In this document: positions 105 through 10,433 of the stretch, in pieces
Layout: each line of letters opens with the position of its first letter
Numbering within the stretch: position 1 is the stretch's first letter
Assembly: GCF_004376175.1 (NCBI RefSeq)
Contig: NZ_SNUY01000078.1
Span: 1 to 10,447 of the forward strand
Direction: 5' to 3'
Origin: Halalkalibacterium halodurans
GTDB taxonomy: Bacteria > Bacillota > Bacilli > Bacillales > Bacillaceae_D
DNA length: 10,447 bases
Translations under genes and position numbers: made by a program
Notes under the pieces: model-generated
Database searches by the model: none
What the model saw: only the letters and a program-made list of their open reading frames with translations
Told to the model about the DNA's origin: nothing

Positions 105-428
105 TCATAGAACTTTTGACACTACCTCATCATTCATGATATTTTCGACCATATGAACATCTATCGCAGAATATTTAATACGGTTTTTTTGAATGGCATA
201 AAACAAAGTGTGATACATCTTACGTTTTGGATTACTTCGAGATGGCATTAATAAGAAAATGCTAACTCCCATACCAAAAACATAATAGGGAATGGTTAAC
301 GAAGAGTGAACCATTCCCTTAGATAGATAAAGAAAAAAAGCAGTTAGTAATAGAATGACAATCTCTTTAAGATGAAATGACTTGGTTATCTTTATCTCAC
401 TTTTAAAGTGTTTCGGAATTTCATACAA
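105..428 (-). CDS. Small two-TM T4SS membrane protein, PrgI/ConD/TcpE-type (VirB3-like), 107 aa
   Basis: Track ORF. The start is TTG (426-428), with a GGGAGGAAGG SD about 8 nt upstream. It lies 1 nt after the TAG stop (430-432) of the upstream gene, so the two are translationally coupled. An N-terminal IPKHFKSEIKITKSFHLKEIV segment is followed by two adjacent hydrophobic helices and a basic tail (RSNPKRKMYHTLFYAIQKNRIKY), which is the PrgI-family/VirB3-like layout. It sits directly after a VirB6-like gene. The family call is from recalled pattern only. Confidence 0.75.
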   Translation of the reverse strand: MYEIPKHFKSEIKITKSFHLKEIVILLLTAFFLYLSKGMVHSSLTIPYYVFGMGVSIFLLMPSRSNPKRKMYHTLFYAIQKNRIKYSAIDVHMVENIMNDEVVSKVL

Positions 429-429
429 G

Positions 430-2640
430 CTACCTTCCTCCCTTTCTCCAATCTCTTATTGTTCTTCCGATTCGATACCCTGTATTGTAACCTTTTACAT
501 GCTCTTCCTTGGCTTTCATAACTACTCTATTTTGCCCCCAAATAGTATTTGGGTGTTGGGCTGTTTTAAACCCTGTTTCCTTTGTAGTATCGTATGTGGT
601 TTCTTGATATTTTTCATTAGGTGCAGTACTTTCTCCACTCGGAACTGGCGCTGTACCTTGTACGCTTTCACTTGAAATTGGTGCAGTACTTTCTCCACTC
701 GGAACTGGCGCTGTATCTTGTACGCTTTCACTTGAAATTGGTGCAGTACTTTCTCCACTCGGAACTGGCGCTGTACCTTGTACGCTTTCACTTGAAATTG
801 GTGCAGTACTTTCTCCACTCGGAACTGGCGCTGTATCTTGTACGCTTTCACTTGAAATTGGTGCAGTACTTTCTCCACTCGGAACTGGCGCTGTACCTTG
901 TACGCTTTCACTTGAAATTGGTGCAGTACTTTCTCCACTCGGAACTGGCGCTGTACCTTGTACGCTTTCACTTGAAATTGGTGCAGTACTTTCTCCACTC
1001 GGAACTGGCGCTGTATCTTGTACGCTTTCACTTGAAATTGGTGCAGTACTTTCTCCACTCGGAACTGGCGCTGTATCTTGTACACTTTCGCTTGAAATTG
1101 GTGCAGTACTTTCTCCACTCGGAACTGGCGCTGTACCCTGACCAGCCTGTGCATTCAGATTCTGACCTTTCATGCCTTGATCAGCTTGTGCATTTGGATT
1201 CTGACCTTTCATGCCTTGATCAGCCTGTGCATTTGGATTCTGACCTTTCATGCCTTGACCAGCCTGTGCATTTGGATTCTGACCTTTCATGCCTTGACCA
1301 GCCTGTGCATTTGGATTCTGACCTTTCATGCCTTGACCAGCCTGTGCATTTGGATTCTGACCACTTGGGATTTTGTTATTCGCTTGATTACGTCTCGATT
1401 GAGATAAAGCGCCATTGTCTTTTTTTGCCCCATTAGTAGCTTGTATACCTGCCTTTAATCCCCCTGCTAAACCTACACCTTGATTGAATTTAGAGAAGCT
1501 TTCACTTACGAGTTTGCCCCCTACCTTTGATGTCACGTTTGATACAGCTTTACTAGCCATCACTAATCCTACACCTGTCCGCCAACTATCTTTTAATCCT
1601 GCGTCTACTCCTAGTATTCTTTCGACTAAGTGTGGACCATCAATAAGAGCAAGGCTAGCCGCTAATAATAGTAACGAGCTTCCAAACGACCCCAAAGACG
1701 ATTGACCACTTAGCCAGTTTGAAAAAAGCACATAGAATTTAAGAGACACTGCAAGAAAAAAGATAACCGCAAAATTGGAAATTATATCATTAATAATTTG
1801 TTTGATTCGCTGTCCTCCTGATAAATCTGTGACAGCTATAAATAAGCCAAACAGCTTTTTAAATGCTAACTCAAATATAATTCGTCCAACTTTTAAAACA
1901 GCTATAATTAACGTAATTCCAATCACAGATAAGCTAAAAATCGTATTCCACCAAGCTACATGCCAACGGTAGTAAAGTTCTTTACCAATACCAAACCATC
2001 CGTTGCCAAGTGGCTCTTCTCTAAAATTACCATTTGTGTCCATAACCAATTTGCTTTTTAAGTAATCATTATTTATATCATCACTGTCGGGATCTATCAA
2101 TTCATTAATATCTATATACGTTATTCGACTAACCGGAAGATCATTTACAAGTCCTTTTTCCGGTATTCTCACATTAAAATCCTTTTTTGCATAAAGGTAT
2201 ACATCAGCAATATTACCTTTAATAAGTTGTTCAGCATTTGTGCCAGCGCTAGTATCACCTATGGCTTTGACCCCTGCTGTTGTTATATTGTCTAAATTAG
2301 ACAATAGCAGGGGCAATGCAATAATAAACAAGAAAGCCAATAAAACATTAGTCACAACTCTTTCCCGATCTTGCATTTTCCCTGCCATAAACTTATATCC
2401 TATCCACACCAGTGATATTGCAACAAGTACCCATAATACCGGCGACCATTGTTTTATAAAGTTATTTACAGGTGCTGAGTTGAAAAATCCATTCATAGTC
2501 AATACTGTATCCGTCATACCTTCTACTTGGTTGACTAGCCACATAAGCCCTAAAATGAGCCACCAGCCTAACTCTCGAAGGGATGAACTAAGTATATTAG
2601 CAATGTTCAAAATCGAATCATATTGTTCTAAAACGTCCAA
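430..2640 (-). CDS. VirB6-like polytopic T4SS channel protein (ConG/TcpH/PrgH class) with a long repetitive C-terminal tail, 736 aa
   Basis: Track ORF. TTG start at 2638-2640, with a GGGGGAGA SD about 5 nt upstream, 11 nt after the stop of the upstream gene. Residues 1-340 contain about 7 hydrophobic helices, with a ~115-aa hydrophilic loop after the third helix (VirB6-type topology). The segment LIDGPHLVERILGVDAGLKDSWR after the last helix resembles Gram-positive VirB6 analogues. The C-terminal ~330 aa carry GQNPNAQAGQGMK x5.7 and TAPVPSGESTAPISSESVQ[G/D] x8.7 repeats, followed by a basic 60-aa end. Confidence 0.85.
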   Translation of the reverse strand: MDVLEQYDSILNIANILSSSLRELGWWLILGLMWLVNQVEGMTDTVLTMNGFFNSAPVNNFIKQWSPVLWVLVAISLVWIGYKFMAGKMQDRERVVTNVLLAFLFIIALPLLLSNLDNITTAGVKAIGDTSAGTNAEQLIKGNIADVYLYAKKDFNVRIPEKGLVNDLPVSRITYIDINELIDPDSDDINNDYLKSKLVMDTNGNFREEPLGNGWFGIGKELYYRWHVAWWNTIFSLSVIGITLIIAVLKVGRIIFELAFKKLFGLFIAVTDLSGGQRIKQIINDIISNFAVIFFLAVSLKFYVLFSNWLSGQSSLGSFGSSLLLLAASLALIDGPHLVERILGVDAGLKDSWRTGVGLVMASKAVSNVTSKVGGKLVSESFSKFNQGVGLAGGLKAGIQATNGAKKDNGALSQSRRNQANNKIPSGQNPNAQAGQGMKGQNPNAQAGQGMKGQNPNAQAGQGMKGQNPNAQADQGMKGQNPNAQADQGMKGQNLNAQAGQGTAPVPSGESTAPISSESVQDTAPVPSGESTAPISSESVQDTAPVPSGESTAPISSESVQGTAPVPSGESTAPISSESVQGTAPVPSGESTAPISSESVQDTAPVPSGESTAPISSESVQGTAPVPSGESTAPISSESVQDTAPVPSGESTAPISSESVQGTAPVPSGESTAPNEKYQETTYDTTKETGFKTAQHPNTIWGQNRVVMKAKEEHVKGYNTGYRIGRTIRDWRKGGR
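621..1140. repeat. 60-bp perfect-phase tandem repeat, about 8.7 copies, inside the VirB6-like CDS
   Basis: The unit gtgcagtactttctccactcggaactggcgctgta[c/t]cttgtacgctttcacttgaaattg starts at 621, 681, 741, 801, 861, 921, 981, 1041 and 1101 (the last is partial). One site toggles c/t (656+60n: c,t,c,t,c,c,t,t,c), giving Gly/Asp on the minus strand. The only other changes are two synonymous Ser-codon swaps at 1084 and 1090 and one synonymous Gln change at 1138. Confidence 0.97.
1141..1362. repeat. 39-bp tandem repeat, about 5.7 copies, inside the VirB6-like CDS
   Basis: The unit a[c/t]cagc[c/t]tgtgcatt[t/c][g/a]gattctgacctttcatgccttg starts at 1141, 1180, 1219, 1258, 1297 and 1336 (the last is partial, ending at 1362). 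It encodes GQNPNAQA[G/D]QGMK on the minus strand. The length is a multiple of 3, so copy-number change keeps the reading frame. Confidence 0.97.
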
Positions 2641-2651
2641 AAAATCTCCCC

Positions 2652-3389
2652 CTATAAGGTCACTGAAATATCATGCTTTGCTTTTTGCAAATACAAGAAA
2701 TTAAATAACAAAAATAAGTAAAAGACTGTAAAAATAACTAAAGTAATAGGGGAATTAAGAAAGTCAGCATATAGCTTACTAGCAAAGAGCGATAAAAGAA
2801 TAGGAACCGCAAATACAATACCTGTCATAAAATAAACTCTGTTCGCACTATATTTTTTCTCTCTCTGCAATTCATCCCTTTTAGTTGTCTCGAAGTTAAT
2901 TAATTTGCTAGTAGGACTGAAAAGATCTGTTACAGATCCCCCCATTTGATACTTAATCTCTAATATTTGATGGAAGGCATTTAGCGATACAAAATTATAT
3001 TTTTCAAAATGAGCTACATCGAGTACACCTTCTTGTTTGAGCGTTTTTATAGTCTTGTCTATATCCTTTTTCAATAAATCACTAGCCGATTCTTTAGCTC
3101 CTTCTAAGGCAAAAAGAACGTTTTTGCCTGTCTTTAAATAAAAAACAACATTTGAAACATACTTACTTAACTCACTAAAAATCCTCTGTTCTTTCTTTAA
3201 CTGCCTCCCCAACAATGAAATGCTATAGAAGCAAAGCAAAGACCCAACAAGCCCTAACAAAACGCTTAATACAACATGTTTGCTGATCATGTAGATGTAA
3301 AGAAAGTTGATACTAAAATAAAGGAGTAAATGGAGCAATACCACCCAACCAGAAAACAATTCTTTTGTTAAACCCCATACATCTTTCAT
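2652..3389 (-). CDS. Polytopic membrane protein with T2SSF (GspF/TadB/TadC)-like organisation, 245 aa
   Basis: Track ORF. ATG at 3387-3389, with an AGGAGG SD 8 nt upstream. Two N-terminal TM helices, a ~115-aa helical cytoplasmic segment, then two C-terminal TM helices. The central region follows the platform-protein pattern: SELSKYVSNVVFYLKTGKNVLFALEGA ... NAFHQILEIKYQMGGSVTDLFSPTSKLINFETTKRDELQREKKYSANRVYFMTGIVFAVPIL. The CDS is confident; the family assignment is moderate to low. Confidence 0.8.
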   Translation of the reverse strand: MKDVWGLTKELFSGWVVLLHLLLYFSINFLYIYMISKHVVLSVLLGLVGSLLCFYSISLLGRQLKKEQRIFSELSKYVSNVVFYLKTGKNVLFALEGAKESASDLLKKDIDKTIKTLKQEGVLDVAHFEKYNFVSLNAFHQILEIKYQMGGSVTDLFSPTSKLINFETTKRDELQREKKYSANRVYFMTGIVFAVPILLSLFASKLYADFLNSPITLVIFTVFYLFLLFNFLYLQKAKHDISVTL

Positions 3390-3415
3390 TTTTTTAACCT
3401 CCTGTTTTGATTAAT

Positions 3416-3450
3416 AAAAAAAGGCTTACAAGTCCAATCACTTGTAAGCC
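3416..3450 (-). terminator. Rho-independent terminator downstream of the primase gene
   Basis: On the minus strand: GGCTTACAAGT-gattgg-ACTTGTAAGCC (perfect 11-bp stem at 3423-3433/3440-3450, 6-nt loop) followed directly by TTTTTTT (3416-3422). The plus-strand reading has no T-tract, so it is unidirectional. Confidence 0.85.
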
Positions 3451-3470
3451 CCGAAAAAATCCCTAATAAC

Positions 3471-3499
3471 AATATAGCACGCTTTGAGTACCTTGTTAG
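3471..3499 (-). promoter_or_regulatory. Candidate sigma-A type promoter (extended -10) in the primase/245-aa intergenic region
   Basis: On the minus strand: CTAACA (3494-3499, 4/6 to TTGACA), a 17-nt spacer ending in TGC, then TATATT (3471-3476, 5/6 to TATAAT). That gives a TGnTATATT extended -10. It is only a sequence match, and the spacer also contains a 5-bp inverted repeat AGTAC...GTACT. Confidence 0.3.
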
Positions 3500-3526
3500 T
3501 ACTTAAATAGTTCATAAAAAGTTCGT

Positions 3527-5134
3527 TTAACCAACTTCCTTTTGAGATTCTTTTTCTTTGTTTTTAGTTTTTAATGGCTTTGTTAAATCTAAAATCTTGT
3601 TAGAAAAATCCTTAGAAGTCTTAACAAAGCTATTTATTTTATCACCCTTAAAATAGTACGGTGTTGATACATAATCTTTTCCTTTACTCTTACCTGTTAC
3701 AATTCCATTTACAATTAAATTACGATAACCAATATTAACAGATATATTACCGTTAGAGAAAGTATGTGAATGAATGATTTTAGGATCAAACTTCCCCCCC
3801 CCTGAACTAATATTAATCCCTACATTCTTAACTGTATTTTTTTCCTTAACCTGATGTTTAAGCTCATAGTAACTTTTAATCAACGCCCCTTCTATCATTC
3901 GTTTATCAAGGCTTTCTTCAAATCTATACACATCCCTCCATACACTATCAGTCCCCTTTTTTTGTGGATAATTAATCATAGGTGAACCTTTATATTCCTC
4001 TATTACAATATTATTGAGAGTTATCTCACCGTACTTCACACATGCAAGGGAAATTCCTTTATCTTGCAAAAAGGTCATATTAACAATCTTAACTTTATAA
4101 TCATTTGATTGCTCTGTTTTGTCATTCATTTTCTCACCCTCCTCTTTTTTCAAATCTATGTCTAAGGTTCTTAAAGTTAGCTCTATTTGTCGCTCAAAAA
4201 GTAAGCGGTTGCTTTGGAGTAAGTCATTAGGATCTTTTAGATCCATATCTGGATAAATAAATCCTTTATGAAACAACTTCTCTTCATCCAAAACGTGTGC
4301 TATTTTTTTATCTGCTTCTTTTCCTGCTCTATCATTGTCAAAAGCTCTAATAATCTTTTTCCCCTTAAACTTATCAGGGTTTTCTTTTATAAATGTTTCA
4401 AGCTGTTTTATTTTATTTGAACCTGTAGTCATTAATAAACCCATTTTCGGATCTATTTCTCGGAATGATAGTCCGTCTATAATACTTTCACTAATAACAA
4501 CAGTTTCAGCATTATCCGGTATATCTTCGACAAAATATCTTGCTTTCTCTGTTGGATTTAAAAATAACTGGATTTCTTTCTTCTTTAGACTAGGATCAGA
4601 CGACCTTAATAACAACGAGTCAATTGATCCTTCATGATTGTAAATAGGAAAAACAATATTCCTCTTTGTCATAAAGTCCATTTTCGCATAGTCTTTTTTG
4701 ATTAGGTCAGGGATTTTCGAGAACATAAGTGATACAATCTTAGGATCTTTTAGATCCAAAATGAAAGGTTTCGTAACTTCTCGATTTATCCCCCGATAAT
4801 TTTCTAATTCTTGATTTACAACATGTTTACTCATGAATTTAAAAAAATTAGTACACCAGTCGATTTGCTCTTTTTGTTTTAAAGAGATACTTTTAGGTTT
4901 TTCGTTTTTCTTTAAGTTCAGATTACCTTTTAGTTTTTCATTTAGTTTAATATGCCAACGTTCACCGCAATTATTTTGCCTATTGCACTGTAACACATTA
5001 AGATTATCTTTATACATAAATGCTTCTGGCTGATTACAAGATGGACAAGTACATAAAAAATAACGCCCCTGTGGTTGAGCGTTTAAAGATTCCAACATAT
5101 CATCAATATTCCTAAACTCTAATTGATTCACCAT
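3527..5134 (-). CDS. Plasmid/ICE-type DNA primase: N-terminal Cys-rich zinc ribbon + Toprim domain + C-terminal tandem SpoVG-like domains, 535 aa
   Basis: Track ORF. ATG at 5132-5134, with a GAGGT SD 7 nt upstream. Cys cluster C28-x-C30-x2-C33 ... C50-x5-C56. Toprim signature: acidic Glu in VVISESIIDGLSF (E216) and DxD in IIRAFDNDRAGKEAD (D266/D268). Residues ~346-425 and ~436-517 each resemble SpoVG (see findings). Confidence 0.85.
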   Translation of the reverse strand: MVNQLEFRNIDDMLESLNAQPQGRYFLCTCPSCNQPEAFMYKDNLNVLQCNRQNNCGERWHIKLNEKLKGNLNLKKNEKPKSISLKQKEQIDWCTNFFKFMSKHVVNQELENYRGINREVTKPFILDLKDPKIVSLMFSKIPDLIKKDYAKMDFMTKRNIVFPIYNHEGSIDSLLLRSSDPSLKKKEIQLFLNPTEKARYFVEDIPDNAETVVISESIIDGLSFREIDPKMGLLMTTGSNKIKQLETFIKENPDKFKGKKIIRAFDNDRAGKEADKKIAHVLDEEKLFHKGFIYPDMDLKDPNDLLQSNRLLFERQIELTLRTLDIDLKKEEGEKMNDKTEQSNDYKVKIVNMTFLQDKGISLACVKYGEITLNNIVIEEYKGSPMINYPQKKGTDSVWRDVYRFEESLDKRMIEGALIKSYYELKHQVKEKNTVKNVGINISSGGGKFDPKIIHSHTFSNGNISVNIGYRNLIVNGIVTGKSKGKDYVSTPYYFKGDKINSFVKTSKDFSNKILDLTKPLKTKNKEKESQKEVG

Positions 5135-5148
5135 ATTGTTTACCTCAA

Positions 5149-5682
5149 CTATACAGACTCACTTAAATAACTGTGATCATTTGTAACCTCTCTGTGAGTA
5201 GATAAAACAATTGCTGGATAACTTAATTTTTCAATCTCTTTATCATCAAAAGTAAGTCCTTGAGAGCTTACCAATATCTTCTGTTTTTCTTTGATCCTAT
5301 AATAATGATCCGTCTTATTAATTTGTTGCTCAATTGCCTTTTCTAAATTTCTAGCTATGAGATAAATGATAGCTCCGTCTCCAAAGATACTCTTATTATC
5401 AAAATATTTTTGTAACTCCAGAGATCCCACTACAATGAAGTCATTATTTAAACATTCAGATAGAGCAACAACTTCCTCCATTTCTTCTTCTAAACCTTTT
5501 AATAAAGCAAAATCATTAAATTTATTAGAGTAATATATACAAGGAGTACATTGAGGACTACTTGTAAACAGAAGAATGATCTCCTGCCAAAACTGTTCCG
5601 CCATAGCATAGCATTTTTCTGCAATCCTATTTACAATTTTTTCATTTAAATATTGATTCTCATGTAATAACAAATTACTCAT
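5149..5682 (-). CDS. Hypothetical acidic cytoplasmic protein, 177 aa
   Basis: Track ORF. ATG at 5680-5682, with an AGGAGAG SD 6 nt upstream. It is 11 nt after the upstream stop and 14 nt before the primase start. No TM segment, no signal peptide and no motif I recognise. Confidence 0.8.
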   Translation of the reverse strand: MSNLLLHENQYLNEKIVNRIAEKCYAMAEQFWQEIILLFTSSPQCTPCIYYSNKFNDFALLKGLEEEMEEVVALSECLNNDFIVVGSLELQKYFDNKSIFGDGAIIYLIARNLEKAIEQQINKTDHYYRIKEKQKILVSSQGLTFDDKEIEKLSYPAIVLSTHREVTNDHSYLSESV

Positions 5683-5693
5683 AATTAACTCTC

Positions 5694-6950
5694 CTAACTT
5701 TTATTTTTTTCAAAAACCACTTTAGTAACATGACTGATATACTCAGTAACCGCCCAATACTTAAAATCCATGCCTTTATTAATGCTCGACTCATATAACA
5801 CTTTTTTTACCTCTTCTTGATCCAACGTTGCAACATACTCCATAATCTCACGTTCAAAACGCCCAAAGAATCCACATTCTATTAATTCCTCAATTTTTAA
5901 AGTTTCTTTTTTGTTCTGCAACCTTCTAATTAGTTTGCCATCTTGACAGATGTTTTTTACTAAGATTTCTGCTACATTATCGAATCCATGTTTTGAAAAT
6001 AAATTTAAAAGATCGTCTTCTGTTTGTCCGTTTGATTGACTTTCATTTTCCTCATTAATGTTAAAGACAATAATCGCTTCTTCTGACTTCTGATCCTTTT
6101 GTTCATTCTGTAAGTATCCAGATAATACTGGCAGTATAATATTATTTTTTATATCGTCCTCAGAGGAAATAACTATCCCCTTTTTAATAATTGAATACCA
6201 CCTGTTCTTCAATAAAGTTTCTATTTCTTTATTCTTTTTTAGCGCCAATACGTAGTCCTCTAAAGCTAGTTGCTCGAATAAATATCTTTGAACCTCTTCA
6301 TAAACTTCCGAATCTCTTAGGCATTTATCAAGTCTAGATAAAGGTAAACTGTAGCGACTTGCTACAGCATAATTCTGAAACATTGAAAAGTTTTCAACGT
6401 CATTTAGACTTTCCTGTGTTAATTCCTGTGTTAAGACTAGATCATCAAAAGAATACTTAATTGCTTTTGCAATATCATTAACTTCACTATAAAAACTACC
6501 TACTATTCGATCTCTAAAAAGATCATAGAGTTGCTTCAATTTTTCTAAACTAAAAGAAAAATCTTGATTAGAAAATTGTTCTTCGACTTCAATAGCAAAC
6601 AATTTAAAATTTTGATCCAAAAACAATTTCTTTTCTTTTGATAGAAAATCAGTAAAATCATTGATCACTTTATTTTTCGTAGCTTCATTCCAATTTGACG
6701 CATTTTTTATTATCAGATAAATCGATTCTTCCAAACTTCTATTATCATTAAAATCAATAAAAGCCTTTAACACTCTTTTATTTTTAATAAACAAAGTAAA
6801 GGACAGTTCAACATTATCCCTTCCATTTTTTCTAAATTCACCTTTAAGTTTTTTTAAGATTCCTTCTAATTCGCTAATAAAATATCGTCGCTTTGGATCT
6901 AAATCTCTAATGCTGTTATTAGCTTCAACAACTACATGTACTTCCCTCAT
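5694..6950 (-). CDS. Hypothetical acidic helical cytoplasmic protein, 418 aa from the preferred start
   Basis: The track ORF extends to a TTG at 6980, but that codon lies inside the upstream terminator T-tract. The ATG at 6948-6950 has an AAAGGGG SD 7 nt upstream and is preferred. There is no Walker A, metal-binding or nuclease motif that I can recognise, and no TM segments. Confidence 0.8.
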   Translation of the reverse strand: MREVHVVVEANNSIRDLDPKRRYFISELEGILKKLKGEFRKNGRDNVELSFTLFIKNKRVLKAFIDFNDNRSLEESIYLIIKNASNWNEATKNKVINDFTDFLSKEKKLFLDQNFKLFAIEVEEQFSNQDFSFSLEKLKQLYDLFRDRIVGSFYSEVNDIAKAIKYSFDDLVLTQELTQESLNDVENFSMFQNYAVASRYSLPLSRLDKCLRDSEVYEEVQRYLFEQLALEDYVLALKKNKEIETLLKNRWYSIIKKGIVISSEDDIKNNIILPVLSGYLQNEQKDQKSEEAIIVFNINEENESQSNGQTEDDLLNLFSKHGFDNVAEILVKNICQDGKLIRRLQNKKETLKIEELIECGFFGRFEREIMEYVATLDQEEVKKVLYESSINKGMDFKYWAVTEYISHVTKVVFEKNKS

Positions 6951-6978
6951 GTCAAAACCCCTTTTTAACAGTAAATAC

Positions 6979-7010
6979 AAAAAAAGATGGTGAGTTAATA
7001 ACTCACCATC
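6979..7010 (-). terminator. Rho-independent terminator downstream of the 75-aa gene
   Basis: On the minus strand: GATGGTGAGTT-att-AACTCACCATC (11-bp perfect inverted repeat at 6986-6996/7000-7010) followed by TTTTTTT (6979-6985). It starts 8 nt after the TAG stop at 7019-7021. Confidence 0.85.
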
Positions 7011-7018
7011 CTACATTT

Positions 7019-7246
7019 CTAGAAGGCAACTACCCCTCTTAAACTGTCTCGTAACGCTCCTGCTCCCAGCACAATCACCAGTCCAACAAGAAGCCATGTA
7101 ATATTTCGCTTGCCCTTTTCCCTACCTTCTTGTCCTCCTGCAAAGAAGTTATACCCCGCCATACATAACATTACTGCACAAAAAGCCCACGCAGGCATTT
7201 GAATAAGCCCTAAGAAGTTTATTAAAGTAGAAATTACACCCTGCAT
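7019..7246 (-). CDS. VirB2/TrbC-like small two-TM protein (pilin-type T4SS subunit), 75 aa
   Basis: Track ORF. ATG at 7244-7246, with a GGAGGA SD 8 nt upstream. Two hydrophobic helices are separated by a short charged loop (GGQEGREKGKRN). The pattern LINFLGL...AFCAVMLCMAGYNFFAGG...LLVGLVIVLGAGALRDSLRG parallels mature Agrobacterium VirB2 (FILGPFGQSLAVLGIVAIGISWMFGR...GGIVIMFGASFLGKTLTG). This is recalled similarity, not a search result. Confidence 0.7.
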   Translation of the reverse strand: MQGVISTLINFLGLIQMPAWAFCAVMLCMAGYNFFAGGQEGREKGKRNITWLLVGLVIVLGAGALRDSLRGVVAF

Positions 7247-7273
7247 TTTTATAATCCTCCAATCTCATTTAAA

Positions 7274-7462
7274 TTAATCTGATACTGCTTCTAAAACAAA
7301 AGATAGATTTTCTGTGATTACTTTTTCATGTTGTGAATGTAGCCATTCATTGTAATCCACTCCTTTCAGAGCAAGAATTTTTTCAGCTTGCTCCTTCTTT
7401 GTTTTAAAATTACTTGGCTTCTTTCTTGGTCTATTTTGCTGTTCATTTTTCAGTTGTTCCAT
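7274..7462 (-). CDS. Small basic soluble protein of unknown function, 62 aa from the preferred start
   Basis: The track ORF (83 aa) starts at 7525, inside the upstream gene. The ATG at 7460-7462 has an AAAGGAG SD 8 nt upstream, and this SD overlaps the TAA stop (7476-7478) of the upstream gene. Sequence: MEQLKNEQQNRPRKKPSNFKTKKEQAEKILALKGVDYNEWLHSQHEKVITENLSFVLEAVSD. Confidence 0.65.
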   Translation of the reverse strand: MEQLKNEQQNRPRKKPSNFKTKKEQAEKILALKGVDYNEWLHSQHEKVITENLSFVLEAVSD

Positions 7463-7475
7463 ATTCTCATCTCCT

Positions 7476-10010
7476 TTATTCCAACGAAATAATATTAGAC
7501 AACCTTTCGTATAGGTCACCATCACTTGTTCTAAAAGAATGTAATAGCTGAGGTTGATCCTGCACCAATTCGAGTATTAGATTCTTTTGTGAATCCTTAA
7601 TCTCGACAGCATGTGTATAACTAACATTTAACGTAGATTCAGGTTGTTCATTGACGTATACGTCATCATAAACAGATCCTAATAGATACTTCTGAAAAGC
7701 AAATTCTTTACCAAAGTCAAGCGTTAGATCATTAAGTGTGAGCTTACCCAAAACATAATGATTCTTATACTGTCTCTCTCTATTCAGAAATGACTTTGGA
7801 TCAACAGGTAAATAGTACCTTTGACCATCAAAAGTTGTTATGTTTTCATTACTAAATTTTGACTTAGTAATTGATTCATACTCTAACTTTGCCTGTTTCT
7901 TTATATCTTCCTTACTTGACTTTCTAGGGACTGAGAACTGAAACCCTGTTTTATCTAAAATAAAAAAATCATCTTTAGCACCAAAATACGCCTTATACTG
8001 GTTTGCTTCACCCTCTTGTATTTCTATTAACTCAAGGGGAATTGCATACTCTGTATAGGCGTAAGCAGTTTTATTTTGATATTTTTTCTGTATAGATTCA
8101 TCCAAATCTACAGGGTAAAGGAACATAAAATCCTCGTCAATGTTATAAGGGAATGGCTCTCCAAAGTCTGATTTGTACTCTATTGGCTTATCAAATATCG
8201 GAAGCCAACTTTGCGTGAGTAAAGTAATCATTCTTTGATCATTAAGCTTTAGTGACTCATAATAACTTTCTTTTTCCCCTTTCGAACCTACCTCTACCGT
8301 TTGCCCTATTAAGAATCTGTGATCAGTACCAAATTCTAAATTATAGGTTTCATTATATGGATAATCTAAGTTAAACGTTTCTTCCCACTGGAAGCTTTTT
8401 TTATACTCTTTATCCCACACAGGTGTACTATCTTTGTAGATCCACTCAAAACAATGCTGTCCTTGTTGATCAGTACAAGTATAATTACGCCTAAAATGGT
8501 TCGTATACTCATAAGAAAAAGAAAACAGAACATCCCTTTTTTTTACATCCAATGGTTGTAACTTCGTTGAAAATGGTTCATCCTCTACGTTGTTAAATAC
8601 ATTTGCTGAATAGATACGATTTTCTACATTTTGTACATCAAAGTGCAACCCTGCAACCGTAGCAGAATTAACCAATAAGGTTTCACTAGGGTTATTTTCT
8701 TTAATTTTTTGTAAGCGCCATGATACTTCACCTTGAGCTTTCCCTTCTGTTGCACCATCTAATTCTTCTATACTGGAAGGGTTCGGCAAAGATACTTTGT
8801 AGGTAAATGTAAAATTCATATTGTTATTTGGTGTAGTCCCTTCATATTTTTGTCCTTCTGGCGAAGCGACAAAAGGGTTTCCGTTGGAATCCTTAAAAAA
8901 TCCAGCCTTCTCAGGTGCATACGAGTAAGAGTTTCCAACAGTAGATTTTACCTTCGTTTGCATTAATATCTTGCCTGTCGCGTAATCCTTATGAGTAATT
9001 GTTACATCAACTGTACATCTTTGATTGATGTTTACTATTGACCCATCTGGACAAACCTTTTTGGTTACTTGGTACGATAGAGTAGCAATAGTACCACCAA
9101 AAGCCCAATAGCTACTAGCTGCCCATCGAGTTCGTCCTGAATCATGAGGGCTACTGACACCATACCAAACAACAGTACTCTTTTGATCTTGGTTCACACG
9201 TTGATAAAAGCGATTGTAGTCAAAATAGTTGCCACTGTTTGTAGTCCCTCTTGGTTCGATTCGCCTGATAACACCATTTCCAATCATACGTAACTGTTGA
9301 GCGTTAATCCCACTAGAAAGGCTAATTTCACCATTACCCCAAGATAGATTTTCAAACTCAAAAGGTAAACGCAATTCGTCATAAAGAACAGTTGAACCTA
9401 CTCTTTTGACAATACGTAACTGCCAATCAGAGTTATTTTCCCCATCCTTAAAAAGCTCATCTAATGGAACATGCGCTCTAAACCCTACATGTTCATAATA
9501 CATGTTGCAAGTTGCATTATTTTGGTTTCTAGCACTATTCGCACAAGGGTTCCAAATATCCCCCGTTTGAGACTGACGGTTGAACTCCATATCTTTTGAA
9601 GCGTTAAAATTAAGTTGTTCCGCTTTATAAAACTTGTCTTCCCCAGTCCTAATATTTTTAAGCCAAATGTATGTGTCTTGGTTATTTTCTGTGTGGTGTC
9701 TATGTCCAATAACTGCTGACCATCCTGTGAAAGTTAAATATTGCCTACTACCTTTTCCAAAGTCCCTACGTTTAATGCTCCAGCCTTCTTTTCCGTCTCT
9801 TTGCATATAAACATCATATACCATCTTTTTTCCACTTTCGAAAGTAGCAGATCGATCTCCTTTTGTCCTCTTGTTTACATCGCTCATTTTAACGTCGTAA
9901 GGACTGTAACTATTCGCTAATCCATTTTCAGGGAAAGCCAACCAAAGAGCAAACCAAAGAGCAAATAATGAAAACACAACAGTTATATAGGAAATTGCTT
10001 TCTTCATCAT
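7476..10010 (-). CDS. Large secreted surface/adhesin-like protein with a MucBP-like beta domain, 844 aa from the preferred start
   Basis: The track ORF begins at a TTG at 10049, inside the upstream terminator. The ATG-ATG at 10005-10010 follows an AAAGGGGGTGAGGGA SD. It has a classical Sec signal peptide (MMKK + AISYITVVFSLFALWFALWLAF + PENGLA/NS). Residues ~346-419 in track numbering (VDVTITHKDYATGKILMQTKVKSTVGNSYSYAPEKAGFFKDSNGNPFVASPEGQKYEGTTPNNNMNFTFTYKV) fit the MucBP pattern. There are three short-range Cys pairs (169/181, 333/345, 525/533). There is no C-terminal LPXTG or TM anchor. Confidence 0.85.
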   Translation of the reverse strand: MMKKAISYITVVFSLFALWFALWLAFPENGLANSYSPYDVKMSDVNKRTKGDRSATFESGKKMVYDVYMQRDGKEGWSIKRRDFGKGSRQYLTFTGWSAVIGHRHHTENNQDTYIWLKNIRTGEDKFYKAEQLNFNASKDMEFNRQSQTGDIWNPCANSARNQNNATCNMYYEHVGFRAHVPLDELFKDGENNSDWQLRIVKRVGSTVLYDELRLPFEFENLSWGNGEISLSSGINAQQLRMIGNGVIRRIEPRGTTNSGNYFDYNRFYQRVNQDQKSTVVWYGVSSPHDSGRTRWAASSYWAFGGTIATLSYQVTKKVCPDGSIVNINQRCTVDVTITHKDYATGKILMQTKVKSTVGNSYSYAPEKAGFFKDSNGNPFVASPEGQKYEGTTPNNNMNFTFTYKVSLPNPSSIEELDGATEGKAQGEVSWRLQKIKENNPSETLLVNSATVAGLHFDVQNVENRIYSANVFNNVEDEPFSTKLQPLDVKKRDVLFSFSYEYTNHFRRNYTCTDQQGQHCFEWIYKDSTPVWDKEYKKSFQWEETFNLDYPYNETYNLEFGTDHRFLIGQTVEVGSKGEKESYYESLKLNDQRMITLLTQSWLPIFDKPIEYKSDFGEPFPYNIDEDFMFLYPVDLDESIQKKYQNKTAYAYTEYAIPLELIEIQEGEANQYKAYFGAKDDFFILDKTGFQFSVPRKSSKEDIKKQAKLEYESITKSKFSNENITTFDGQRYYLPVDPKSFLNRERQYKNHYVLGKLTLNDLTLDFGKEFAFQKYLLGSVYDDVYVNEQPESTLNVSYTHAVEIKDSQKNLILELVQDQPQLLHSFRTSDGDLYERLSNIISLE

Positions 10011-10037
10011 TAGAAGTCCCTCACCCCCTTTTCGAAT

Positions 10038-10070
10038 AAAAAAACACAAAACCTAGTAGCTTCGTGTTTT
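10038..10070 (-). terminator. Intrinsic terminator of small-peptide cassette 1
   Basis: Minus-strand RNA: AAAACACGAAGC-uacuag-GGUUUUGUGUUUU followed by further U (7 U in a row, 10038-10044). The core stem is 8 bp with two G.U pairs, flanked by A/U pairs. It overlaps the TAA stop at 10069-10071. Confidence 0.7.
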
Positions 10071-10224
10071 AGAATACATTGCGAATCGTATCTGTAATAC
10101 CTTTAAAAACAGTATCTACTGTTTGACTAAACCATCCATTATCACCACCAAGTGCTACCCCTAGCACTCCAAAGAGCATTACAGCAAGAACAATTAAAAA
10201 CAAAGATCCATTTTTTTCACCCAT
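10069..10224 (-). CDS. 51-aa single-TM membrane peptide, cassette copy 1 (not in the ORF track)
   Basis: Hand translation of the minus strand gives ATG (10222-10224) ... TAA (10069-10071): MGEKNGSLFLIVLAVMLFGVLGVALGGDNGWFSQTVDTVFKGITDTIRNVF. The SD AAAGGGGGTGA (10/11 match to AAAGGAGGTGA) ends 5 nt before the ATG. An identical peptide is encoded 209 bp upstream, with only a synonymous difference. Confidence 0.8.
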   Translation of the reverse strand: MGEKNGSLFLIVLAVMLFGVLGVALGGDNGWFSQTVDTVFKGITDTIRNVF

Positions 10225-10246
10225 CAGTTTCACCCCCTTTTCGAAT

Positions 10247-10279
10247 AAAAAAACACGAAACCTAATAGCTTCGTGTTTT
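10247..10279 (-). terminator. Intrinsic terminator of small-peptide cassette 2
   Basis: Same hairpin as at 10038-10070, but the stem G.U pair is a G-C pair here (10257 g versus 10048 a on the plus strand) and the loop differs by one base. It is followed by U7. Confidence 0.7.
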
Positions 10280-10433
10280 AGAATACATTGCGAATCGTAT
10301 CTGTGATACCTTTAAAAACAGTATCTACTGTTTGACTAAACCATCCATTATCACCACCAAGTGCTACCCCTAGCACTCCAAAGAGCATTACAGCAAGAAC
10401 AATTAAAAACAAAGATCCATTTTTTTCACCCAT
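10278..10433 (-). CDS. 51-aa single-TM membrane peptide, cassette copy 2 (not in the ORF track)
   Basis: ATG at 10431-10433 and TAA at 10278-10280. The protein is identical to copy 1, with a single synonymous ATT/ATC difference at Ile43. It has the same consensus-like SD. Confidence 0.8.
   Translation of the reverse strand: MGEKNGSLFLIVLAVMLFGVLGVALGGDNGWFSQTVDTVFKGITDTIRNVF

Follow-up and report, generated by a model that had tools for sequence, protein, structure and literature searches.

How is a long conjugation operon of a Gram-positive element expressed when strong intrinsic terminators stand between its genes? This question is raised by a 10,447-nt stretch of DNA from Halalkalibacterium halodurans (contig NZ_SNUY01000078.1, assembly GCF_004376175.1), the whole of which is referred to as the window. 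It carries a Gram-positive conjugation (type IV secretion system, T4SS) gene cluster, a distant relative of those of pBS72 and pLS20, in which a first-pass annotation had placed four hairpin/U7 terminators. Judged by sequence and predicted folding, these are genuine Rho-independent terminators, strong, orientation-specific, and far above chance expectation. The explanation that we favor, at slightly better than even confidence, is that they divide the conjugation cluster and are passed by regulated read-through, by means of a factor whose predicted link is to an ArpU/Ltr-type regulator and not to ConAn1/conAn2. The four sites are as follows:

10243..10279, minus strand: terminator T1 (10279-10250 in the hairpin/T-run scan), 13-bp stem, loop of 4, U7, -15.0 kcal/mol, z-score -4.6
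10034..10070, minus strand: terminator T2 (scan 10070-10041), -12.9 kcal/mol, z-score -4.3
6977..7012, minus strand: terminator T3 (scan 7012-6984), 6 nt past the pilin stop codon, -17.6 kcal/mol, z-score -5.6
3414..3452, minus strand: terminator T4 (scan 3452-3421), -19.3 kcal/mol, z-score -6.2

Energies and z-scores were calculated with RNAfold against 200 shuffles per site, none of which (0/200 each) was as stable as T1, T2, T3, or T4. All four sites combine a 12-13 bp stem (13 pairs each in the consensus scan) with a U7 tract on the sense side, i.e., a stable GC-containing hairpin followed by a U-run on the transcribed strand, as defined for Rho-independent terminators. A stricter scan (compact hairpin of ≤ -9 kcal/mol with at least 6 T in 8 positions), which took the place of a noisy permissive hairpin scan, returned five matches on the sense strand, namely T1-T4 and a hairpin without U-tract inside the DUF5592 gene, and none on the antisense strand of the window. 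In 50 dinucleotide shuffles the same scan gave a mean of 0.84 matches (0.2 at ≤ -11.5 kcal/mol) and a maximum of 1. The scan coordinates agree within 3 nt with those annotated in the first pass. Generic palindromes or repeat elements were ruled out as the identity of the hairpins, the three sequences being unrelated and all having sense-side U-tracts. The hairpin of the DUF5592 gene (window 287-319, minus strand) is stable at -17 kcal/mol and, lacking a U-tract, is probably not a terminator.

Stable 3' hairpins guard RNA against 3' exonucleases, and the hairpins of the window lie directly at the ends of small genes. They might hence serve mainly in RNA stability or processing, as 3' protection of the peptide and pilin mRNAs or as 5' stabilizer of the p245 mRNA. 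However, a U7 on the sense side only, found at all four sites, is a termination signature, and the antisense strand has no such structure. A terminator also makes a protective 3' end, so that both functions are not exclusive; as the main role of the hairpins, RNA stabilization appears very improbable.

All long open reading frames (ORFs) of the window lie on the minus strand. The genes directly upstream of the terminators are those named in the first pass:

10278..10433, minus strand: gene of a 51-aa membrane peptide, copy 1 (MGEKNGS..., one transmembrane helix)
10069..10224, minus strand: 51-aa peptide gene, copy 2, protein identical to copy 1
7019..7246, minus strand: gene of a 75-aa VirB2-like T4SS pilin (Pfam PF18895, E=2.6e-8)
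3527..5134, minus strand: gene of a 535-aa Toprim primase (Pfam Toprim_2, E=2e-11)

Four intergenic gaps are longer than 30 nt (53, 58, 68, and 137 nt) and each of them hosts one terminator, the remaining six measuring 1-27 nt. The Shine-Dalgarno (SD) sequence of the next gene follows the U-tract after about 9 nt at T1 and T2 (GGGGGTGA), 17 nt at T3 (GGGG), and 12 nt at T4 (AGGAGG). These distances bear out the annotated proximity of terminator and SD and leave no space for a promoter between them, again as annotated. In the 12-nt gap behind T4, TATTAA occurs without a -35 element at usable spacing, and a promoter at this place was ruled out.

The number of sites has to be qualified. A 209-bp tandem repeat (2.0 copies, 98% identity) carries both peptide genes together with T1 and T2; its copies differ at 4 of 209 positions, and T2 deviates from T1 by one G-C to G-U change and one loop change. 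As copies of a single tandem duplication, T1 and T2 reduce the four annotated sites to three independent ones. The repeat extends exactly to the end of the window, and an independent Logan assembly (L001) also breaks inside it. The window end is probably a contig break, beyond which further copies of the repeat may follow.

By their positions, the terminators would split the cluster into modules, i.e., the two copies of the 51-aa peptide gene; the genes of the large protein, p83, and the pilin; those of p418, p177, and the primase; and those of p245, the VirB6-like protein, DUF5592, and onward. The genes of these modules that were not listed above are:

7476..10010, minus strand: 844-aa secreted large protein (ORF and translation; homologues at 35-51% identity), a probable adhesin, with MucBP annotation on some homologues
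7274..7462, minus strand: 62-aa protein (p83 ORF), the SD favoring the ATG at 7462
5694..6950, minus strand: p418, 418-aa protein without assigned function (gene call also in L001; homologues in class A loci, see below)
5149..5682, minus strand: p177, 177-aa protein (ORF; homologue in L014)
2652..3389, minus strand: p245, 245-aa polytopic membrane protein (ORF; homologues at 32-46% identity in both classes A and B)
430..2640, minus strand: 736-aa VirB6-like transmembrane protein of the pLS20_p028 family, with C-terminal tandem repeats
105..428, minus strand: DUF5592 protein, a conserved T4SS neighbor (Pfam PF17332, E=1.9e-20)

Extension of the analysis toward related elements showed that the positions of the terminators are shared. 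A megablast search with the whole window against plasmids (PLSDB) gave no match and thus no near-identical plasmid, and a scan of viral contigs with an alignment of the large protein gave no relatives. Protein searches retrieved syntenic loci (L numbers) with large-protein identities of 35-51%, which split into two classes by gene order:

Class A, order large protein, p83, pilin, p418, (p177), primase, the same as in the window: L008; L014; pBS72 (L003/L017); a B. mycoides plasmid (L004/L027/L026); a P. larvae plasmid (L005); L030
Class B, order large protein, two small genes, FlaJ-like protein, ATPase, p245: L010/L015; L012; L013; L016; L018/L023/L025; L028; L035

The gene content of the window is that of class A. 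The neighbors of p83 are conserved in class A loci and pLS20, and small genes homologous to the peptide gene precede the large-protein gene in all relatives. The same strict scan, combined with inspection, detected a terminator before the peptide gene in every independent locus checked (L008, L014, L003, L004, L010, L012, L013, L016, L018/L025, L028, L030, and L032), with two tandem copies in L014 and three in L010. After the peptide gene, a terminator was found in the window, L008, L010, L012, L016, L018/L025, L028, and L032, and none in L003, L004, L013, L014, and L030. The pilin gene is followed by a terminator in the window, L008, L003, L004, L005, and L030, and by a hairpin without U-tract in L014; ahead of the p245/VirB6-like module, the window, L008, pBS72, and L030 have a terminator. 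At these common junctions, the elements carry terminators of unrelated sequence; therefore, positions rather than sequences are maintained. This maintenance of positions, indicative of selection, supports the functionality of the sites more strongly than any other observation. pLS20 and the Listeria plasmids, the latter being experimentally conAn-positive relatives, are poor positional comparators because their gene order differs.

Two observations from the relatives are added here. In the Cytobacillus horneckiae element (L010, 9519-9666), the three terminators directly upstream of the peptide gene are identical and part of a 62-bp tandem repeat. The window and five loci were also scanned with Rfam at gathering thresholds, without a relevant match; the only hit was BsrG, a type I toxin-antitoxin small RNA (L008 641-942, 90.9 bits), which in this closest relative lies upstream of the conjugation genes.

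What, then, would these terminators do? Two non-exclusive proposals were made in the first pass, both reasonable in outline given the terminators at the same junctions in relatives. One is that the terminators are leaky and set stoichiometry; taken alone, it would mean that a constant fraction of polymerases passes each site and that expression descends along the cluster without any antitermination factor. This fits T1, T2, and T3, which follow genes of small membrane structural proteins, and does not fit T4, which follows the primase gene rather than that of an abundant subunit. The tandem duplication of the peptide gene in three class A elements (window 10069-10433, L004 10624-11002, and L030 9525-9893) would be consistent with a demand for high product dosage, and the G-U change of T2 is weakening. 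Nevertheless, 12-13 bp stems with U7 are typical of efficient terminators, and at least three of them stand in series before the channel genes, so that 10% read-through at each would leave about 0.1% or less of the transcription, with even more terminators to pass if a leader terminator precedes peptide copy 1 as in the relatives. In addition, a gene dedicated to antitermination is present in sister elements whose terminators are arranged alike. Leakiness as the sole principle is thus unlikely. Efficient terminators, three or four in a row, would otherwise shut off the channel genes, full expression of which therefore most likely needs an element-encoded, regulated read-through.

A candidate for such a function is found at the head of the operon in the relatives, and it differs between the two classes. 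Class A operons begin with an XRE-type helix-turn-helix gene and a gene of the ArpU family, the 134-144-aa product of which matches TIGR01637 at 5-7e-20, has Sigma70_r4-like features, and resembles sigma region 4 of SigF and SigW in the PDB with the C-terminal part of its profile. At the equivalent position, class B operons carry a gene for an 85-aa ConAn1-like protein, followed by a non-coding gap of about 190 nt. This protein matches PF17362 (pXO2-34, ConAn1 domain) below threshold in 3 of 5 members (E=6.7e-4), the NCBIfam family TraE_Enteroc at 5e-6, and the N-terminal processivity half of pLS20 ConAn1 with 83% hhalign probability (E=8.7e-6). Hidden Markov model (HMM) searches over all six-frame ORFs of all loci confirmed the split. 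The ArpU profile matched class A loci only (L003/L017, L004, L005, L008, L027, and L030), corresponding to 5/5 independent class A front ends vs 0/7 in class B, and the ConAn1-like profile matched class B only (7/7), as well as pLS20 ConAn1 itself at 7.9e-4. Within the stored upstream sequence of five class A loci, reaching about 7.4-10 kb before the large-protein gene, no ConAn1-like ORF was found at E≤10 (HMM). Hence, both genes are mutually exclusive at the same operon position. The window itself contains no ArpU-like regulator gene. On the basis of its class A gene content and of the array promoter described below, the missing upstream region, and with it the front end of the window element, is predicted to be of the ArpU/Ltr type.

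These data bear directly on the second proposal of the first pass, an antitermination system of the pLS20 type, in which the ConAn1 protein and the conAn2 RNA, encoded upstream of the window, would render RNA polymerase resistant to all four terminators. Bipartite antitermination has been shown experimentally for pLS20 and eight other Gram-positive plasmids (PMC8191782), the cluster of the window is part of the pLS20 superfamily by its homologues of pLS20_p028, DUF5592, p83, and the pilin, and the seven class B loci carry the ConAn1-like gene with its non-coding gap. Within the plasmid superfamily the mechanism is thus documented, but five independent loci of the window's gene order argue against it here, as the upstream sequence stored for them contains an ArpU-like gene and, at E≤10, no ORF resembling ConAn1. 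A repeat-array promoter, present in the window, is likewise seen in class A only. ConAn1 proteins are very divergent and a homologue may have been overlooked; still, by gene content and promoter type conAn is unlikely for the window element specifically, and we assign this mechanism a decidedly low probability.

The promoter in question is located between the primase and p245 genes, just upstream of T4, and its presence is statistically supported:

3487..3524, minus strand: array of four direct G(A/T)ACT repeats at an exact 11-bp period, which extends to about -25 and is a candidate for activator binding
3471..3480, minus strand: extended -10 element GTGCTATATT (TG-n-TATATT), found in the promoter scan

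The repeat units are, in order, GAACT, GAACT, GTACT, and GTACT (3524-3487), and the promoter scan reports CTAACA-17-TATATT with TG at 3499-3471. As the last repeat lies near -25, the array takes the place of a -35 element. GTGCTAWAWT occurs once in the window at an expectation of 0.10, and the array statistic, which equals the scores of both pBS72 arrays, is reached by 0.27% of the window segments and by none of 3000 Markov sequences. T4 begins 20 nt past GTGCTATATT, that is, inside the leader of this internal promoter. Consequently, the cluster, although co-directional with all genes on the same strand, is not one operon devoid of internal promoters; the first-pass statement itself, that no promoter separates terminator and SD, holds.

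The same architecture, GTGCTAnAnT preceded by short direct repeats with a phase of about 11 bp, recurs in relatives, where the arrays of L008, L014, L003 (twice), and L005 are clearer than that of the window:

L008: TGGCAG five times, then GTGCTATAAT
L014: CTGGA nine times, then GTGCTAAAAT
pBS72 (L003): two arrays, the first TGGCR five times, then GTGCTAATAT; the second before the p245 homologue
L005: TGAGACTTTTT four times, then TGCTAATAT

A terminator follows the motif after 20 nt in the window, 25 nt in L008, 41 nt in L014 (two terminators), and 17 nt at the first pBS72 site; at the second pBS72 site and in L005, the terminator is located upstream of the array. ArpU, RinA, and other Ltr proteins are activators of phage late operons that bind short direct repeats upstream of the late promoter, and Ltr-regulated phages have a terminator in the same intergenic region as this promoter (PMC3753634, PMC3152322). 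The window offers such repeats as predicted sites.

Taken together, the reading that we favor would proceed as follows. T1, T2, and T3 would stop most polymerases after the genes of small, presumably high-copy membrane subunits, so that short transcripts would be plentiful and the downstream machinery far less expressed, and the terminators would at the same time block stray transcription and insulate the modules from each other. T4 would block read-through from the primase module and lies in the leader of the internal promoter, whose lack of a -35 element and four 11-bp-phased repeats would correspond to the architecture of ArpU/RinA (Ltr)-driven phage late promoters. The factor for read-through would be encoded outside the window and linked to the ArpU/Ltr-type regulator instead of ConAn1/conAn2. 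No promoter was found near T3 in any relative, so that the p418-primase module relies wholly on read-through. With about 10-35 nt ahead of the first terminator, class A leaders offer too little room for an RNA antiterminator, which would make a promoter-loaded protein the simplest remaining option for read-through in this class.

A specific form of such a mechanism resembles that of lambda Q. The ArpU/Ltr-like protein, replacing ConAn1/conAn2, would attach to the phased repeats and associate with RNA polymerase at the array promoter; only these polymerases would be terminator-resistant and be carried through the leader terminator 17-41 nt downstream and through later ones, all other transcription being stopped. 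The strong terminator 17-41 nt after GTGCTAnAnT in the window, L008, L014, and at the first pBS72 site is too close for a cis-acting RNA antiterminator and would be pointless for a plain activator. The mutual exclusivity of the ArpU-like and ConAn1-like genes and the match of the ArpU-like C-terminus to sigma region 4 point in the same direction. On the other hand, Ltr/ArpU proteins are known as activators only (PMC3753634), and the order of terminator and array at the second pBS72 site and in L005 is that of phages. We consider this form quite unlikely.

Several points weigh against the broader reading of regulated read-through linked to an ArpU/Ltr-type regulator. The efficiency of the terminators is judged from structure alone. 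The array of the window is short, consisting of four 5-mers with one degenerate position, and its -10 element scores 5/6. Simple activation does not account for a strong terminator 20 nt past the promoter, nor does the reading supply a mechanism by which T3 would be passed toward the p418-primase module, and the front-end type of the window is a prediction extrapolated from 5 + 7 related loci.

A comparison with characterized systems places the locus between known designs. The pLS20 conjugation operon contains 23 predicted intra-operon terminators, six of which were tested, functional, and bypassed by conAn; coordinated expression, differential expression, and suppression of spurious transcription were proposed as their roles (PMC8191782). 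As in pLS20 (Ter30, Ter33, Ter35 ..., conAn1/conAn2; PMC8191782, PMC8955417), the window holds a long co-directional Gram-positive T4SS operon with multiple intergenic intrinsic terminators, to which insulation from spurious transcription and differential expression can be ascribed, and both share the pLS20_p028-family VirB6-like protein, DUF5592, p83, and the pilin. Unlike the window, pLS20 has a different gene order and no terminator after its pilin homologue (20-nt gap), and its operon is headed by ConAn1, whereas relatives of the window's order have an ArpU-like gene and no ConAn1; the internal repeat-array promoter is a feature of the window. conAn2 is a non-coding RNA of 260-600 nt downstream of conAn1, compared with the gap of about 190 nt in class B. 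Inc18 plasmids lack a conAn system (PMC8955417). The antiterminator of Tn916 is an RNA, canT (PMC11658703); its terminators T1-T3 also insulate Gram-positive conjugation genes and require a processive antiterminator, but the leaders found here (about 10-35 nt) are too short to encode such an RNA.

With the Ltr superfamily (RinA, ArpU, LtrA-C, and TP901-1 Alt, which binds repeats from -76 to -32; PMC3753634, PMC3152322), the class A relatives share a small sigma-region-4-like regulator (TIGR01637), short direct repeats upstream of a promoter (here candidate sites), a terminator in the regulatory region, and an early-to-late cascade logic. Different from Ltr systems, the elements are conjugative and not phages, the arrays have 4-10 copies in exact 11-bp phase abutting the -10 element, the terminator is downstream of the -10 element in four cases, and the regulator gene is not adjacent to the promoter. 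The likeness to lambda Q (PR'-qut-tR') consists in a promoter closely followed by a terminator, where a promoter-bound factor could license read-through of several terminators; unlike Q, to which they have no homology, ArpU-like proteins would act here without an identified sigma-dependent pause element, and their travel with the polymerase is hypothetical. Attenuating terminators after major pilin genes are also a feature of pilus operons (Gram-negative chaperone-usher and type IV pilus). These share the terminator directly after the gene of a small abundant subunit with machinery genes downstream, but are Gram-negative and consist of unrelated genes.

Terminator-rich conjugation operons with processive antitermination are a recently recognized control layer for gene transfer in Firmicutes, one which may limit host range. 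The general design, terminators within a Gram-positive conjugation operon, has already been described. The front end implied for the window element, as predicted from its relatives, is a variant not described in the literature searched, in which no report linking ArpU-type regulators to conjugation operons was found; the published description of pBS72 goes no further than a putative conjugative plasmid that is not part of the pLS20 family (PMC8708921). The layout, with terminators around the gene of the small peptide, behind the pilin gene, and ahead of the channel module, is kept by elements with different front-end regulators, one class carrying a ConAn1-like gene and the other a phage-type ArpU/Ltr regulator with repeat-array promoters. 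If class A also antiterminates, this would be a new way of licensing read-through and would invite a second look at Ltr regulators in phages; were the lambda-Q-like form true, the Ltr family, widespread phage late regulators, would gain an antitermination function not described for Ltr proteins. If class A does not antiterminate, the locus is one more example of a known design.

Searches for the upstream flank of the window used exact-protein look-ups of the peptide, the pilin, and the primase, which returned Logan contigs only (L001, the longest, breaking inside the 209-bp repeat, and L002, a 3-kb fragment). DNA pattern scans of viral and metagenome contigs and a first genome scan gave nothing, and a search with the L008 ArpU-like protein, at a too strict E-value cut-off, found only itself. 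Peptide copy 1 is 100% identical to WP_166740121 (Halalkalibacterium halodurans), and for the peptide, pilin, primase, and DUF5592 proteins, identical counterparts exist among Halalkalibacterium halodurans entries that come from one 15.5-kb draft contig. Homologues of the primase at 32-46% identity are found on plasmids of Bacillus, Paenibacillus, and Listeria, and tblastn with the VirB6-like protein matched pLS20_p028-family genes in pBS72, the P. larvae plasmid, and pLS20.

The small peptide matched no family, and tblastn of its sequence against plasmids was likewise without a match. It has a conserved N-terminus (MGEK-x-G), one transmembrane helix, and an amphipathic tail, and, relatives carrying TadA-like and FlaJ-like genes, it might be a pilin-like subunit.

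Within the primase gene, a further structure was noted by the hairpin/T-run scan, together with its counterparts in relatives:

5062..5083, minus strand: weak hairpin with U6 at about codons 17-27 of the primase gene
L004 16033-16056, L005 16034-16055, and L030 15140-15163: counterparts of the primase-internal hairpin

At all synonymous sites, the eight flanking codons (AAC GCT CAA ... GGG CGT TAT TTT TTA) do not differ among five elements whose protein identity is only about 40%, and the neighboring codons vary. The hairpin may act as an intragenic attenuator or pause site. A second conserved element is a non-coding block of about 90 nt with the core CTGGATCGCRCTAGT, shared by the B. mycoides and P. 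larvae plasmids (L004 10240-10370 and L005 10590-10700). It is part of the long leader that separates the promoter region from the pre-peptide terminator, has no Rfam match, and could be a leader RNA element.

The window joins the primase gene directly to p245 (3390-3526), and class A relatives carry in between two small genes, VirD4, a FlaJ-like protein, and a VirB11/TadA-like ATPase (compare L008 14162-19295). The comparison of gene order thus indicates a deletion or rearrangement in the element of the window, exactly at the junction that bears the internal promoter and T4.

G+C content is 30-37% across most of the window. The 3' end of the VirB6-like gene (window 620-1362) contains in-frame tandem repeats of 60 bp (8.6 copies, 98%) and 39 bp (5.7 copies, 96%), which encode Gln/Asn/Pro-rich and Ser/Thr/Pro-rich stretches. 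The large protein has 844 aa in the window vs 840 aa in the independent Logan assembly at 99% identity, with a 12-bp in-frame indel in the signal-peptide region (window 9936-9965 vs L001 about 110-140).

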